A stretch of DNA of 64,000 nt from an uncultured Candidatus Saccharibacteria bacterium. GTDB lineage: Bacteria > Patescibacteriota > Minisyncoccia > UBA6257 > GWB1-50-10. The stretch's first letter is position 1. Every line of letters starts with the position of its first letter. A program made the position numbers and the translations under genes. This document shows, piece after piece, positions 45,588 to 59,765 of the stretch. Location of the stretch: the NCBI GenBank assembly GCA_964466475.1, contig CAYXNB010000001.1:44635-108634 (forward strand), in the 5' to 3' direction. The notes beneath the pieces were generated by a model. That model saw only the letters and a program-made list of their open reading frames with translations, ran no database searches and had not been told where the DNA came from.

Positions 45588-48500
45588 TTACTTGGAAACG
45601 GTCTTGTAGGCCGACGGCAGATCCTTCACGTAGTATCCGTTGAACCAGTCCGCGGTCGTTTCCGAATGCGCTGTATCGGTAACCGAATGATCGGACCAGA
45701 TGAATGACGGCTGTCCGTCGTGTGTCGAGGTTTCCGCCCCGTTCACTGTGGTTGCCGTTATTACTGCGGATTCCGTCAGGAAGAGACGGACTGAAGCGTT
45801 CGGGCTCGCACCCGCCGCGGTTGAAAGATCCGCGAACGGCAGCGCGACTTCATACGTCTTCGAAGATCCCGCCGCGATTTCTTCCGCGGTCGTAAGAATG
45901 ATCGTTACGTATCCGGAGTTTCCTCCAGTGATGGTCGCGTTTTGCGCCGTTGTGGACGCTACCGCGTTGCCGCTGATCGCCGAAGCGATATCCAGGTTCG
46001 AGCTTACGGACGGAGCGATTCTCTTGATCGTAATCGTTCCGGTCGTGCCCGGTACCGAGCTCAATGACGACATTGTGGCGTCTGTCATTGCCACGTTCAA
46101 CTGGATCTTCTTCCAGGAAATCTGCTCTGCCGAATCCGCGTCGATCTTGAAGGCGAATACCGGTTGAGCGTTTCCTGACCGGAGATTGTACGACTGAGTC
46201 GGCAAGCTGATTGTCGGCTTGGTCTTGTACACAACCTTCCGGTTGCCGGTCGCGGCCGTGATGGACGTATCCTTCGCGGTCGCGCCCTGCGAATCGAATC
46301 CTGCGGCCATGACGCTTACGAACACGGTTTCTCCGGAGTCAGCCCCTCCCGAATTGGTGTTCAAGGCACCTTTTACGGTCAAGGTCTTTGATCCGTTCTT
46401 CGGAACCTTCCAGCCGAGGTCGTCAACGAAGACCACGCCGGAATTGTCTCCGGAACCGGTTACCGGATATCCGTCCGCGGTGCCGATCTGCGTCGCCCCG
46501 TCATAGAGCTTCACTCTCGGCACTTCGTCCGCCGCGCCGGTTGATGTCGCTGTCGCGGAAGAGGACGTTACGACAAGAAGCTGCATGTCGTTTACCGTCA
46601 TTTCTTCGTTGGTCGCGCTAAACCGGAATTTGGCGAGCGTCTGTTCGCGTCCCGCGATCACGATGCCGGCTTCCGAGTCCTCGTCATCCGGAGCTTTCGC
46701 CACGGTGATGCTGCCCACGTCGGCAACCGTTACCACTACGCTTGCCGTGGTGGTGTTGATGCCGGAGGGGCCGCTGATCGTGGCGGAGTTTCCGTCAACG
46801 TCGGTCGCGGTAATGTAGGTTGAGTTGGAGTTTACCAATCCGAACCTCCATGTGTCGCCGTTTGTCGCGTTCGCGTCAATGTTACCCTTCAGGGTCAGCA
46901 CCTTGGTTTCACCCTTTTTCAAGGTGATGTTCAGGTTGCTGAAGGTTGTCGAAAGATCCGTGTCAAGCGACTTGGTGTCGGAAACACGGGTTTCTCCGTC
47001 ATAGAGGGCCAGGGACTGCACCTCTCCCGTTCCCAGAGTTCCGCTGCCCGCGGTCGAAGTCGTCTTGATGGACGTAATCTTCACGTCTCCGCCGGTTGCC
47101 CGGAAGGAGAAGCCCACGAGCGGAACTTTCTGAGTTCCCCGAACGTATGTCTGCGATGTCGGAGTCGAGGCAAGCTGCACGGTTACGGTCGGTACCCGCG
47201 TGTCCTGCACGTTTCCGGCGATCGTCGAGTTCGGGACGATGTCCGAGGTCGCGACGTTGGTGTTGTTGTCCAGGTTCTTAATATCTCCCGACACAAAGGC
47301 AAGGAGAGAAACCAGGATGTCGTCACCATCGTCGTTGTCCGCGTCCACGTCAACCGTTACCTTGAACCGGCGCGACTCTCCGGCAGCCATGTTGATGACG
47401 TCGGTGAATGTCACGTCAGTCGAGATTGTTACGTCCGTTGCGGAGGTTACAACCGCGTTCTTTTCCACATCCCAGACCTTCATATCCATAAACCCTTCTC
47501 CGGATTCAAGTCCGGTTGTGGTCGCGTGGAAGCGAAGGTTCTTGATCTCGACTTCGTTCTGGGACGCGAGTGTGAAGTCAAACACGGTCTGATCCTGTCC
47601 GCGGAGCGAGACGTCTCCCGCGATCGGGCCGTTGAAGGTGATGGTCACCTGTCCGCCCGAGATCGTAAGAGTGTCCGCATCCCCGTCGGCATCCAATCCG
47701 CCAATGGTCGGCAACACGGGATACCCGTACTGCTTTCCGATCGCGCGGATGTCGGACGAGGTGTCGAAGCGAATGATGATAGTATCGTTCGCCCGCGCCT
47801 TTCCGCTGATATCACCGTAGATCTTAAAGGTCCTTTGCTGACCCTTTTCGATCGTGTACGGCTTTGAAAGGACAAAAGTGATAAGATCTTTTGTTCCGAT
47901 CGAATCCGCGGTTCCGATGGTTTCGTCGTTTACCTTCAGTTTGAAGTTCGAAAGATGTTCATTCTGAATGGTTCCGGTTTCAACCACCGCGATTTTTTCA
48001 ATGATTACGTCTTCCGTTGAGGAGGCCGTAAAAATGATTTCCTGCAACAGGGCTTCTTTTTGCCCGATACGGGGGTTTGCCGGAGCAGCTCCCGAGGTCG
48101 GATCAAGTCCTCCCACGGTCTGTCCCGCTATTTCCATGAGGTTCCCCGTAACGCCGGTTATGGTCGGCGCCGCCGGTGTTCCTTCCCCGGAAACCAACTT
48201 CATGTAATTCCTGTTTCCGGTCGTTGATCCTGCCGCGATATCCGCGATCAGGGTCAAGGTCTTCACCTCGTTGTTCAAGGTGAGTTTCAAACCGGGGAAG
48301 CTTACCTCGTGCGTGGTGGAGTTCAGCGTCTTACCGCTGGTAAGCCGCGTGTCTCCCTGCATCAGGTTAAAGCTTCCGGAAACAAAGTCGGTTGTCGCAC
48401 CGATACCTTCTCTCTTGAAGACAAGGGAGTCCAAGGTTCCGGTGCCTGCGACGTTAAACTTCAAGAATTTAACGCCGCTCGCGCCTTTCGGCACCGCTCC

Positions 48501-49082
48501 CGCGCCCGCGTTATCCGCGGCGAGGGTGACCGCGATTCCCGATGAAGGAATCACGACGTTTGCCGGAGGCGGAGTTGTGGTTCCGGGAGTTGTCGTCCCC
48601 GGGGTCGTCGGCACTACCACCGCGCTCGCGATGGCATTGCGCGTCAAAGGACCGAAGTAACCGACGGAAGGAGTTACCCCCTTTGCCGCCTGCCACTTGG
48701 CCAAGGCCGCGCGAGTTGCCGGACCGAAGTAGGACGATTCGTTGCCCGGAGATCCCGCACCCGAGGCGGAAACCTGATACCCGTTCGCGTTTAAGGTCTG
48801 CTGAAGGCACTTTACGTCATCTCCTGTTGAACCCAAGGTGAGGTCTCGGGTGAACGAGCAAGAAACAGCGACAGCGCCGCCAGTGGTCCCTCCGGTCTGG
48901 GCCGCAAGTTGTCCCTGGAGCTGCGAAATCAATGCTAATAGTTGGTTGATCTGTGCCTGGAGTTGCTCGACCGTAAGGGTCTGGGCTCCTGCCACAGGCA
49001 CGATTGCAGCCGCGCCCGAGAGCCAGATGGCGGTAGATACCGCAACGCCCACAGACGCAGCCTTTTTCATGAATGTACTCAT
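45588..49082 (-). CDS. Giant repetitive cell-surface protein: signal/TM anchor, coiled-coil, peptidoglycan-binding domain, then about 950 aa of Thr/Ser/Gly-rich beta-repeat modules
   Basis: N-terminus MKKAASVGVAVSTAIWLSGAAAIVPVAGA; PG_binding_1-like GSTGDDVKCLQQTLNANGYQVSASGAGSPGNESSYFGPATRAALAKWQ; repeated modules of pattern K-T-L-T-[LV]-KG-x-[IL]-[DN]; 1164 aa. Confidence 0.7.
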   Translation of the reverse strand: MSTFMKKAASVGVAVSTAIWLSGAAAIVPVAGAQTLTVEQLQAQINQLLALISQLQGQLAAQTGGTTGGAVAVSCSFTRDLTLGSTGDDVKCLQQTLNANGYQVSASGAGSPGNESSYFGPATRAALAKWQAAKGVTPSVGYFGPLTRNAIASAVVVPTTPGTTTPGTTTPPPANVVIPSSGIAVTLAADNAGAGAVPKGASGVKFLKFNVAGTGTLDSLVFKREGIGATTDFVSGSFNLMQGDTRLTSGKTLNSTTHEVSFPGLKLTLNNEVKTLTLIADIAAGSTTGNRNYMKLVSGEGTPAAPTITGVTGNLMEIAGQTVGGLDPTSGAAPANPRIGQKEALLQEIIFTASSTEDVIIEKIAVVETGTIQNEHLSNFKLKVNDETIGTADSIGTKDLITFVLSKPYTIEKGQQRTFKIYGDISGKARANDTIIIRFDTSSDIRAIGKQYGYPVLPTIGGLDADGDADTLTISGGQVTITFNGPIAGDVSLRGQDQTVFDFTLASQNEVEIKNLRFHATTTGLESGEGFMDMKVWDVEKNAVVTSATDVTISTDVTFTDVINMAAGESRRFKVTVDVDADNDDGDDILVSLLAFVSGDIKNLDNNTNVATSDIVPNSTIAGNVQDTRVPTVTVQLASTPTSQTYVRGTQKVPLVGFSFRATGGDVKITSIKTTSTAGSGTLGTGEVQSLALYDGETRVSDTKSLDTDLSTTFSNLNITLKKGETKVLTLKGNIDANATNGDTWRFGLVNSNSTYITATDVDGNSATISGPSGINTTTASVVVTVADVGSITVAKAPDDEDSEAGIVIAGREQTLAKFRFSATNEEMTVNDMQLLVVTSSSATATSTGAADEVPRVKLYDGATQIGTADGYPVTGSGDNSGVVFVDDLGWKVPKNGSKTLTVKGALNTNSGGADSGETVFVSVMAAGFDSQGATAKDTSITAATGNRKVVYKTKPTISLPTQSYNLRSGNAQPVFAFKIDADSAEQISWKKIQLNVAMTDATMSSLSSVPGTTGTITIKRIAPSVSSNLDIASAISGNAVASTTAQNATITGGNSGYVTIILTTAEEIAAGSSKTYEVALPFADLSTAAGASPNASVRLFLTESAVITATTVNGAETSTHDGQPSFIWSDHSVTDTAHSETTADWFNGYYVKDLPSAYKTVSK

Positions 49083-58795: not shown

Positions 58796-58928
58796 CGTTT
58801 TAAATTGTTTCTCTTTTCTTTTCGTGATACCTTTTTATTGGTCTTCTATATTCGTTTTCCCTCCCTCCTGCTCTGACTCCGACACACGCGATGGCGGGAG
58901 GGAATCTGCGGGCCATGCCCGCCCGAGA

Positions 58929-58963
58929 GGCGTTTCGCGCTAGCGAACGCCTCTTTGTTTTTA
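58929..58963 (+). terminator. Hairpin (GGCGTTTCGCG-CTA-GCGAACGCC) followed by T-rich run
   Basis: Interrupted 10-bp stem then tctttgtttttatt; about 130 nt downstream of tRNA-Arg. Confidence 0.4.
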
Positions 58964-58983
58964 TTGTGCCGCGGGAGGGAATT
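58964..58983. repeat. 20-bp perfect direct copy of the tRNA-Phe 3' end region (ttgtgccgcgggagggaatt = 59131..59150)
   Basis: Exact 20/20 identity 167 bp from the genuine tRNA 3' end; additional degenerate copies of GGGAGGGAAT at about 58893 (direct) and about 59076 (inverted). Confidence 0.75.
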
Positions 58984-59097
58984 CTTCTCCCCTGTCGCGA
59001 ACTAAAGTTCGCTCCTCCTCCAAAGCCGGGCGCACTCGCTCCATCGTGCCCCGCATGCGCGAGTGTCGCCTTCAATTCCCTCCCGCATGGATACACA

Positions 59098-59126
59098 AAA
59101 AGAACTCGCGGGCGAGTTCTTTTTGT
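59098..59126. terminator. Bidirectional rho-independent terminator (AGAACTCG-CCCG-CGAGTTCT flanked by A5 and T5)
   Basis: 8-bp GC-containing stem, 4-nt loop, A-run upstream and T-run downstream on both strands; lies just 3' of the minus-strand tRNA-Phe gene. Confidence 0.65.
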
Positions 59127-59133
59127 GCACTTG

Positions 59134-59459
59134 TGCCGCGGGAGGGAATTGAACCCCCGACGCCAGCCTCTTCCAAGGCGATGTTTCCCGAATTACTCCG
59201 GGGTTCGGACTATATCATCCCCGCCTTCCGTATTCATGTTTCTCATCGAAGGCGGGGTCGGGCGCTATTTGCGAGTTTATTGTTGGGACTCACTCGCTAG
59301 TCTCTACACCTTCCCCGCAACCTTTGCCCTGCGGGGCTTGGCTCGGGATTGTCCCGCCTTGGCGGGATTTCCCCGAATTCACCCGATTTTTCTCATTCCG
59401 CATTTCTGCGAAGGGCCCCAAAGATTTAGGGCTGCGCTCTACCACTGAGCTACCGCGGC
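59134..59459 (-). tRNA. Intron-containing tRNA gene; exons assemble a canonical tRNA whose anticodon loop reads CUGAAGA, tentatively tRNA-Phe (GAA)
   Basis: 5' exon about 59427..59459: GCCGCGG-TA-GCTC-AGTGGTA-GAGC-G-CAGCC-CT; 3' exon 59134..59173: GAAGA-GGCTG-GCGTC-GGGGG-TTCAATT-CCCTC-CCGCGGC-A; all four stems base-pair; A73 discriminator; interrupted after U33 by 253 nt. Confidence 0.7.
59174..59426 (-). ncRNA. Group I self-splicing intron (253 nt) in tRNA anticodon loop
   Basis: Intron begins AAAUCUUUGGGGCC: IGS GGGGC pairs with exon-end GCCCU giving the U-G wobble at the 5' splice site (P1); R-like GGUGUAGAGACUAGC and S-like GAUGAUAUAGUCCGAAC elements form P7; P/Q-like GAAUUCGGGGAAAUCCCGCC and CAAUCCCGAG; terminal G before exon 2. 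Confidence 0.7.
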
Positions 59460-59765
59460 ATATTTAGTTTTTCTTCTGCGCTTCGCTTATTCCCTACTCC
59501 ACGATGCCTTCGGCTGCGCTCTTCCCGGGCGCGCCTTCCTTTATTATAGTATTACAAAAAATTTTTTTTGTACATTGTGCGGCTTTTGTACGTTGCGCGG
59601 CGCGGCCTCGCTTCTCTTCTTGTCTTACTTATGACGTCCTCAAACTGTCCACATATGCAGAAATTTTGAGGACGGCGCAAATTCAGCGTCGCTCTTTTTG
59701 CAACTTCTCCCCTCTTCTTGTATTCTTTTTCTGTACTCTTTTTCACTCCTTTTCACTCCATTTTT

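Follow-up and report, generated by a model that had tools for sequence, protein, structure and literature searches.

A tRNA-Phe gene split by a group I intron in a 64-kb sequence of an uncultured Candidatus Saccharibacteria bacterium

The split gene and its relatives

A stretch of 64,000 nucleotides (nt) from an uncultured Candidatus Saccharibacteria bacterium (contig CAYXNB010000001.1, positions 44,635 to 108,634; the whole stretch is called the window below) carries two halves of a tRNA on its minus strand, and this locus raises the question of whether the halves form one gene interrupted in the anticodon loop by a group I intron, as an initial annotation had proposed from the sequence, and whether the place of insertion is new. 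When introns were allowed, ARAGORN recovered a tRNA-Phe(GAA) gene at 59459-59134 (minus strand, as are all gene and intron coordinates below) with the intron between nucleotides 33 and 34. Both in this mode and on exons joined in silico, the program returned a canonical tRNA-Phe(GAA) with four stems and the anticodon loop CUGAAGA, in agreement with the annotation's reading of the halves, their stems and the anticodon. Exon 1 (59428..59459; 32 nt, tRNA nucleotides 1-33; GCCGCGGUAGCUCAGUGGUAGAGCGCAGCCCU, with the 3′ end ...CAGCCCU), as given by the intron mode of ARAGORN, supplies the 5′ strand of the acceptor stem, the D arm, the 5′ strand of the anticodon stem (CAGCC), C32 and U33. Exon 2 (59134..59173; GAAGAGGCUGGCGUCGGGGGUUCAAUUCCCUCCCGCGGCA, with the 5′ end GAAGAGGCUG), placed by the same mode and by reading of the sequence, supplies G34, A35, A36, G37 and A38, the 3′ strand of the anticodon stem (GGCUG), the variable loop, the T arm, the 3′ strand of the acceptor stem and, as its last nucleotide, the discriminator A73; CCA is not encoded at its 3′ end.

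The intron between them (59174..59427) starts with AAAUC and ends with ...CCUUG, the final G at 59174 being omegaG; its boundaries come from ARAGORN and from an enumeration of sites described below, and its length is 254 nt, one more than the 253 nt of the initial annotation. The Rfam group I intron model RF00028 (Intron_gpI), whose search had been named there as a check, matched 59437-59186 on the minus strand over its full length (model positions 1-253/253) with 84.4 bits and an E value of 4.9e-20, the gathering score of the model being 50 bits. The minimum free energy (MFE) fold of the intron, with G+C-rich helices and a predicted energy of -104.5 kcal/mol, had a z score of -4.49 against 200 dinucleotide shuffles, none of which was as stable (0/200), and the MFE structure alone yields P1, P2, P3, P4, P5, P6a, P7.1 and P8. 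The split tRNA-Phe gene with a group I intron is far beyond chance.

At default settings, ARAGORN and likewise the Rfam tRNA model missed the split tRNA-Phe in the window and reported tRNA-Arg(UCU), tRNA-His(GUG) and tRNA-Gly(UCC) only, all on the plus strand. That standard tRNA finders miss such a gene matters for annotation, because without an intron-aware search the genome would seem to be without tRNA-Phe, and completeness estimates of Patescibacteria are thereby distorted. This point has already been made by Nakagawa et al. (mSystems 2026, PMC13011429).

The suggestion that the insertion site might be undescribed is not supported, since the class appears both in that paper and in one by Williams (bioRxiv 2020, 10.1101/2020.01.27.920355). 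Williams scanned ~80,000 bacterial genomes and raised the number of intron-bearing tRNA types from the 4 classic ones to 21, and among the 26 seed sequences of his covariance model is Mba55.Phe.2Ug, in which site 2 stands for 33/34. This intron shares with that of the window the tRNA-Phe host, the site 33/34, the U before the 5′ splice site (U-1), omegaG, an identical P1 (GCCCUAAAUCUUUGGGGC), a hairpin after P7 and the P7.1 loop GUGAGUCCCAACAAUAA, and the two are 81% identical over aligned positions; it comes from another species and has 234 nt where the window intron has 254 (20 nt more); in the window intron P8 is longer and P9 is a proper hairpin that ends in a GNRA loop. Nakagawa et al. 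(PMC13011429) described a Phe(GAA) intron at 33/34 in the Doudnabacteria genome GCA_016699995.1, where exon 2 starts with GAAGA and where ARAGORN, tFind and a BLAST-based protocol were concordant on the site. Here too the host is tRNA-Phe, the anticodon loop is CU|GAAGA and nucleotide 37 is G, with 82% identity between the introns over aligned positions and 55/72 identical nucleotides between the spliced tRNAs, but the Doudnabacteria intron is 211 nt long, lacks P9 and has GCCU / GGGC as guide and anticodon stem. At 81-82% identity over aligned positions, the window intron is homologous to these published Phe 33/34 members, and the reassembled exons and the insertion point (ARAGORN, boundary enumeration and P10 covariation) place it in the Phe(GAA) 33/34 class. 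It is a further member of a class that is common in Patescibacteria and had already been listed in 2020 and 2026, and the site, which is also the classic insertion site in tRNA-fMet, is not new.

To see how widely such introns occur, one genome per GTDB species was scanned with the pattern AGAGACTAN{4,6}TGAGN{0,2}CCAACAATAA, built on the 5′ strand of P7 together with the loop of P7.1. At least 120 loci matched. With a further 100% identical contig (L001, see the last section), 121 loci and the window gave at least 74 tRNA-Phe calls by ARAGORN with introns (72 with the anticodon GAA, the other two wrongly called AAA), and once the boundaries were slid to the U-1/omegaG register the intron lay at 33/34 in at least 70 of the 74, window included. 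Among the matches listed, the carriers of Phe introns are mostly Patescibacteria (Paceibacterota/Parcubacteria, Saccharibacteria, Moranbacteria, Falkowbacteria, Magasanikbacteria, Doudnabacteria and Wolfebacteria); a few carrier metagenome-assembled genomes (MAGs) bear the labels Bdellovibrionales or Gammaproteobacteria. The closest of these matches to the window is a Paceibacterota locus (L059; 74% over 338 nt). Nine of the ten relatives tested passed the RF00028 gathering score, and the window scores above all nine. The locus raises no new question: class, site and phylum-level pattern are all published. It is one more well-resolved case of a ribozyme that is widespread and probably inherited vertically, here in a reduced genome.

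Intron fold and pairing with the exons

The structure was taken from the Rfam alignment and the consensus of Williams and projected onto the columns of an alignment of 67 Phe introns with their exon flanks, the window included. Standard pairs filled 90.6% of the 4,267 paired cells, compared with 32-50% after the partners had been moved by 1-3 columns and with 76% after the columns had been shuffled; changes on both sides were present in 48 of the 68 pairs, and none of the observed measures was attained in any of 500 shuffles. Nearly all pairs of P2, P6a, P7.1 and P9 are compensatory; in P3, P4 and P6 conservation prevails, with some compensatory changes. By this count of covariation the intron possesses the core of group I, namely the P3-P7 pseudoknot, the P4-P6 domain, P8 and a P7 with a bulged A, and the consistent P3-P7-P9 core that the initial annotation had asked to be verified is present within a P1-P9 fold supported by covariation in the alignment.

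The contacts between intron and exons define the splice sites. P1 (59415..59432) is formed by exon GCCCU plus intron AA (59432-59426) with the guide UUGGGGC (59421-59415), and its splice-site U·G pair, in which U33 is the exon nucleotide, occurs in 67/67 homologues. The exons fall into two families, ...GCCCU|GAAGA with G37 (29 sequences including the window) and ...GGACU|GAAAA with A37 (38 sequences), and the guide matches the family, being GGGGC in the first and GGUCC in the second. The double-compensatory pairs of P1 are those of alignment columns 9/32 and 10/31, where G-C/C-G and A-U/C-G switches follow the exon family. P10 pairs the guide UCUUU (59420..59424) with exon-2 GAAGA (59173-59169) and was 98.2% paired; opposite tRNA nucleotide 37 every sequence is paired, 38 of them as U-A and 29 as C-G (in the window, nucleotide 37 is 59170 and its guide partner 59423; columns 25/366). 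This covariation, which is without exception, fixes the 3′ splice site and demonstrates selection for exon alignment and hence for splicing. Covariation as clean as that of P1 and P10 is unusual. OmegaG (59174) has a G as its counterpart in all 74 tRNA-Phe calls among the loci listed. When the eight sites of the anticodon loop were enumerated, U-1 and omegaG coincided only at 33/34 and 37/38, and 33/34 alone has U-1 inside the U·G pair of P1 together with a G before the 3′ exon.

Downstream of P1, the P2 hairpin UUCGCA-GAAA-UGCGGA (59397..59412) was 97% paired with 6/6 compensatory pairs, and P3, in which the 5′ strand UCGGGUG (59380..59386) covaries with the 3′ strand CGCCCGA (59258..59264), was 99.6% paired with three compensatory pairs. 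The segment 59343..59376 holds P4 (59376-59371 / 59348-59343), 100% paired in the alignment, which encloses P5 (59367-59362 / 59357-59352). P6 (59342-59340 / 59310-59308) and P6a (59336-59331 / 59318-59313) occupy 59308..59342, and P6a was 99% paired with all six of its pairs compensatory. P7 is formed by GUAGAGACUA and GAUAUAGUCC: its 5′ strand G-A-GACUA with the A bulged (59298..59304), which is invariant but was part of the search pattern, pairs with 59212-59207, and its 3′ strand UAGUCC (59207..59212), preceded by J8/7 AUGAUA and lying outside the search pattern, is invariant in 67/67. By established group I chemistry, P7 would be the guanosine-binding helix. The 27-nt P7.1 hairpin (59271..59297; stem GCGAG / CUCGC, conserved loop UGAGUCCCAACAAUAAA), which separates the 5′ strand of P7 from the 3′ strand of P3, was 98.8% paired in its stem with 4/5 compensatory pairs. 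P8 (59219..59257), as given by the alignment and the MFE fold, is a hairpin with a 10-bp stem (CCCCGCCUUC / GAAGGCGGGG) and a 19-nt loop, and its five basal pairs are well supported. The P9 hairpin CCCGGA-GUAA-UUCGGG (59187..59202), with a GNRA loop, was found in 42 of the 67 aligned introns, 25 being without it, so that its figures (98% paired, 6/6 compensatory) refer to those 42. Together these results bear out what the initial annotation had read from the letters, namely an intron that starts with AAAUC after an exon-terminal U, a guide GGGGC paired with exon GCCCU, R and S elements that form P7, and a G before exon 2.

Probable splicing and its alternatives

If the intron behaves like others of group I, one precursor transcript of the whole gene would be made, and the guide 5′-UCUUUGGGGC would pair with exon-1 GCCCU to form P1, with part of the anticodon stem unwound and U33 in the U·G wobble. 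An external guanosine in P7 would attack after U33, omegaG (59174) would then occupy the site in P7, and the guide UCUUU and exon-2 GAAGA would form P10 and align exon 2 for the attack of the U33 3′-OH after omegaG, by which the intron would be released and the exons ligated. The product would be a 72-nt tRNA-Phe with the anticodon loop CUGAAGA, to which CCA would be added later. The catalytic steps and the role given to P7 are those of established group I chemistry. We put the probability that a group I intron of 254 nt, which has no protein-coding gene and splices as group I, interrupts the tRNA-Phe(GAA) after U33 and before G34 at roughly 0.88. The window gene is very probably functional, and its intron is probably self-splicing.

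Nakagawa et al. (PMC13011429) found that introns of Patescibacteria inserted at 35/36 of tRNA-Asn and of tRNA-Asp self-splice in vitro. These introns share with that of the window the phylum and an IA-type core with a P7.1 hairpin; they differ in the tRNA and in the position, and some carry HNH endonuclease genes, which the window intron does not. Several points weigh against our reading. The splicing assays of Nakagawa et al. (PMC13011429) cover the introns at 35/36 of Asn and Asp only, and none at 33/34 of Phe. The copy number of tRNA-Phe is visible within the 64-kb window only. In the alignment, P5 is variable in length, poorly aligned and 57% paired, and the distal part of P8 is likewise variable in length and 68% paired; the pattern used in the homologue search held the P7 5′ strand (AGAGACUA) and the P7.1 loop, so that the invariance of both is partly by construction. 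Finally, one of the ten relatives tested on RF00028 (L002) stayed below the gathering score. The sequence in question (L002:2435-2710), a Moranbacteria intron of the A37 family, aligns well with the family in spite of its score, and evidently some members escape the standard RF00028 model.

Many group I introns require protein help in vivo. The intron could accordingly be genuine and yet depend on a host protein, a chaperone or a maturase-like factor, for splicing in the cell, and the presence of no peripheral elements other than P7.1 and P9 would suit such a need. We consider this improbable, since comparable small IA introns in Patescibacteria tRNAs splice protein-free in vitro (PMC13011429) and the G+C-rich helices of the window intron are predicted to be very stable (-104.5 kcal/mol); moreover, host-protein dependence is a refinement of the main reading and no true alternative to it.

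The gene might also be a decaying pseudogene, whose intron has lost catalysis and in whose place another, uninterrupted tRNA-Phe gene serves translation. This would agree with a class whose splicing is a prediction, with a view limited to 64 kb of the genome, and with an intron that has no homing endonuclease gene and so is not actively mobile. However, all core elements are intact, the RF00028 score tops those of the nine scoring relatives, the exons give a perfect cloverleaf, and the compensatory changes in at least 67 species show that the fold and the guide-exon pairing are under purifying selection. Nor was an uninterrupted tRNA-Phe found among the 214 intron-less tRNAs in ~0.9 Mb of the relatives' loci (0/214). 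Decay is thus very improbable. Less credible still is a boundary at 37/38 (CUAAAU|A, with the anticodon AAA), where in the eight-site enumeration a U likewise precedes the 5′ site and a G the 3′ site, and which could draw on the 2-nt boundary errors of ARAGORN and tFind for other Patescibacteria introns (PMC13011429). We rejected it on its anticodon and because its U falls in the P1 loop outside any U·G pair, because it is unavailable in relatives whose introns start with GG or GA (33/34 fits all), because the covariation of P10 with nucleotide 37 is compatible only with 33/34, and because three methods agree on 33/34 in the Doudnabacteria homologue. An intron of the archaeal or eukaryotic type spliced by proteins was rejected as well, as the locus has a full group I core and the site 33/34, not 37/38.

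Subgroup, nucleotide 37 and surroundings

The Michel-Westhof classification recognises subgroup IA by an extra pairing that lies between the 5′ strand of P7 and the 3′ strand of P3. Of the P7.1/P7.2 pairings of that subgroup, the window intron has one hairpin, P7.1, and no P7.2. In subgroup IC3 nothing is inserted between P7 and the 3′ strand of P3, where the window intron has its covarying 27-nt hairpin, and aligned IC3 introns of the classic tRNA-Leu, fMet, Ile and Arg cases have no such hairpin. From these features the window intron is best described as IA-like, not IC3, with a P7.1 lineage that is typical of Patescibacteria tRNA introns. This placement agrees with Nakagawa et al. (PMC13011429), who placed none of the tRNA introns of Patescibacteria in IC. 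The cyanobacterial tRNA-fMet(CAU) intron (fMet.2Ug) shares the insertion at 33/34 but belongs to IC3, has no P7.1, sits in another tRNA and in some copies carries a PD-(D/E)XK endonuclease gene. The introns of Azoarcus tRNA-Ile and Anabaena tRNA-Leu(UAA) are likewise small bacterial self-splicing introns of the anticodon loop; they share the P3-P9 core logic and have a P7 (GUAGAGACUA / AUAGUCC) very similar to that of the window, but they lie at 36/37 and 34/35, respectively, belong to IC3 and have no hairpin between P7 and P3.

A37 is the usual state of bacterial tRNA-Phe, and G37 (as m1G or wyosine derivatives) is typical of archaea and eukaryotes; G37 may also occur in some reduced bacterial genomes. 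The initial annotation had called G37 unusual. The nucleotide is indeed a G, but not at this locus alone: among the tRNA-Phe calls in the matches listed ~30 relatives have G37 and ~39 have A37, and G37 is also present in the published Doudnabacteria tRNA-Phe, so on sequence comparison it is a lineage trait common to the whole subfamily. It presumably implies a modification of the anticodon loop unlike that of typical bacterial tRNA-Phe, m1G in place of the i6A-type modification of A37, and because the P10 guide tracks nucleotide 37, the intron would be tied to the position that sets this modification.

Five intron nucleotides, the last of them 3 nt before omegaG, complement the exon-2 3′ strand of the anticodon stem in the G37 subfamily. 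The pairing averaged 4.66/5, compared with 3.71 +/- 0.10 when partners were swapped (maximum 4.0 in 1,000 trials), and the offset was exactly 3 nt in 22/29 sequences; the tail covaries with the exon (GACGC/GCGUC, CACGC/GCGUG, AUGCU/GGCAU), and nothing similar was seen in the alignment of the A37 family. P9 is missing from most introns of the G37 family, i.e. from most introns that have the tail helix. In the window, the tail UCGCC (59177..59181) makes 4/5 pairs with exon-2 GGCUG (59168-59164), a weak 'pseudo-anticodon stem', while a normal P9 is present. The tail resembles the exon-1 strand of the anticodon stem and may replace exon 1 while the latter is held in P1; such a helix may do the work of P9 where introns are shortest, or may keep the precursor tRNA-shaped. 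That intron and tRNA have co-evolved in this subfamily at two points past the textbook core, P10 with nucleotide 37 and the tail helix, is a tentative proposal which we think rather doubtful at present. The accessible parts of Williams (10.1101/2020.01.27.920355) and Nakagawa et al. (PMC13011429) contain no mention of either, and both would be modest new details.

No homing endonuclease gene was found in the 254-nt intron, which is too short to hold one and where the overlapping open reading frames (ORFs) are short and spurious, and the intron thus lacks the encoded enzyme of a mobile (homing) intron. According to Nakagawa et al. (PMC13011429), endonuclease genes are confined to introns >500 bp. 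The neighbouring genes encode ClpB, an HtrA-type protease, SIMPL, a class-V aminotransferase (cysteine desulfurase-like), MgtC and an ABC transporter, and desulfurase, MgtC, SIMPL and HtrA recur with 49-58% amino acid identity beside the split tRNA-Phe in L068, L076, L091 and L004, which are Paceibacterota, Jorgensenbacteria and 'Patescibacteria group' MAGs. By these matches the window locus is syntenic with intron-carrying Patescibacteria relatives, and the conserved flanking genes indicate a Patescibacteria (Parcubacteria-type) chromosome. Because no endonuclease gene is present and the neighbouring genes are conserved, inheritance of the intron is probably mainly vertical. A phage origin was rejected, as the locus had no blastn match in 50,697 phage records and the flanking genes are cellular. 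A search for identical proteins gave one public assembly contig, the 4.8-kb L001 (Logan SRR5011273_8652), which is 100% identical to the window over an overlap of 480 nt and breaks inside the intron; the JGI metagenome contigs, scanned for an exact 44-mer, gave no match.

The P7-P7.1 motif extends beyond tRNA-Phe. It was also found in tRNA-Asn introns of Peribacteria and Peregrinibacteria, and introns with the motif occur in cultured Isosphaeraceae (Planctomycetota), namely Singulisphaera acidiphila DSM 18658, Singulisphaera sp. Ch08 and Tundrisphaera lichenicola (loci L018, L019, L051 and others, e.g. L019:5326-5607). ARAGORN called the host tRNA in the latter variously Gln(CUG), Lys(CUU) and Arg(CCG), and the intron boundaries are therefore uncertain there, but these carriers are cultivable and splicing is testable in them. 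The motif (AGAGACUA...UGAG..CCAACAAUAA) also appeared in 68 IMG/VR viral contigs (L122-L189), one of which (L129) passes the RF00028 threshold. ARAGORN found no tRNA around the motif in the 68 contigs, and the viral copies thus presumably interrupt genes other than tRNA genes.

Further features lie around the gene. On the plus strand, a 185-amino acid (aa) ORF (58891-59448) runs antisense to the intron and exon 1; we treated it as spurious despite its tblastn matches, which arise because the ORF overlaps conserved intron RNA, and a gene caller might wrongly report a conserved hypothetical protein here. Downstream, a terminator-like hairpin (AAAAAGAACUCG-CCCG-CGAGUUCUUUUU; 59097..59124, minus strand), found by eye, starts 10 nt past the 3′ end of the tRNA (A73) and, as a symmetrical A5-stem-loop-T5, resembles a bidirectional intrinsic terminator. 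Upstream, a perfect TATAAT hexamer (59543..59548, minus strand), also found by eye, lies 84 nt from the tRNA 5′ end and is a candidate -10 box only; a sigma-70 scan found no -35 box to match it (59548-59543). A consensus scan for promoters and terminators gave no hit on the minus strand near the gene and flagged neither the hexamer nor the hairpin, the latter probably because its T run sits within the stem. Over ~57 kb of the window (561-57995), almost all long ORFs are on the minus strand and the GC skew is persistently negative, and this stretch includes a 1,164-aa protein (45588-49082) whose sole recognisable domain is a peptidoglycan-binding one.

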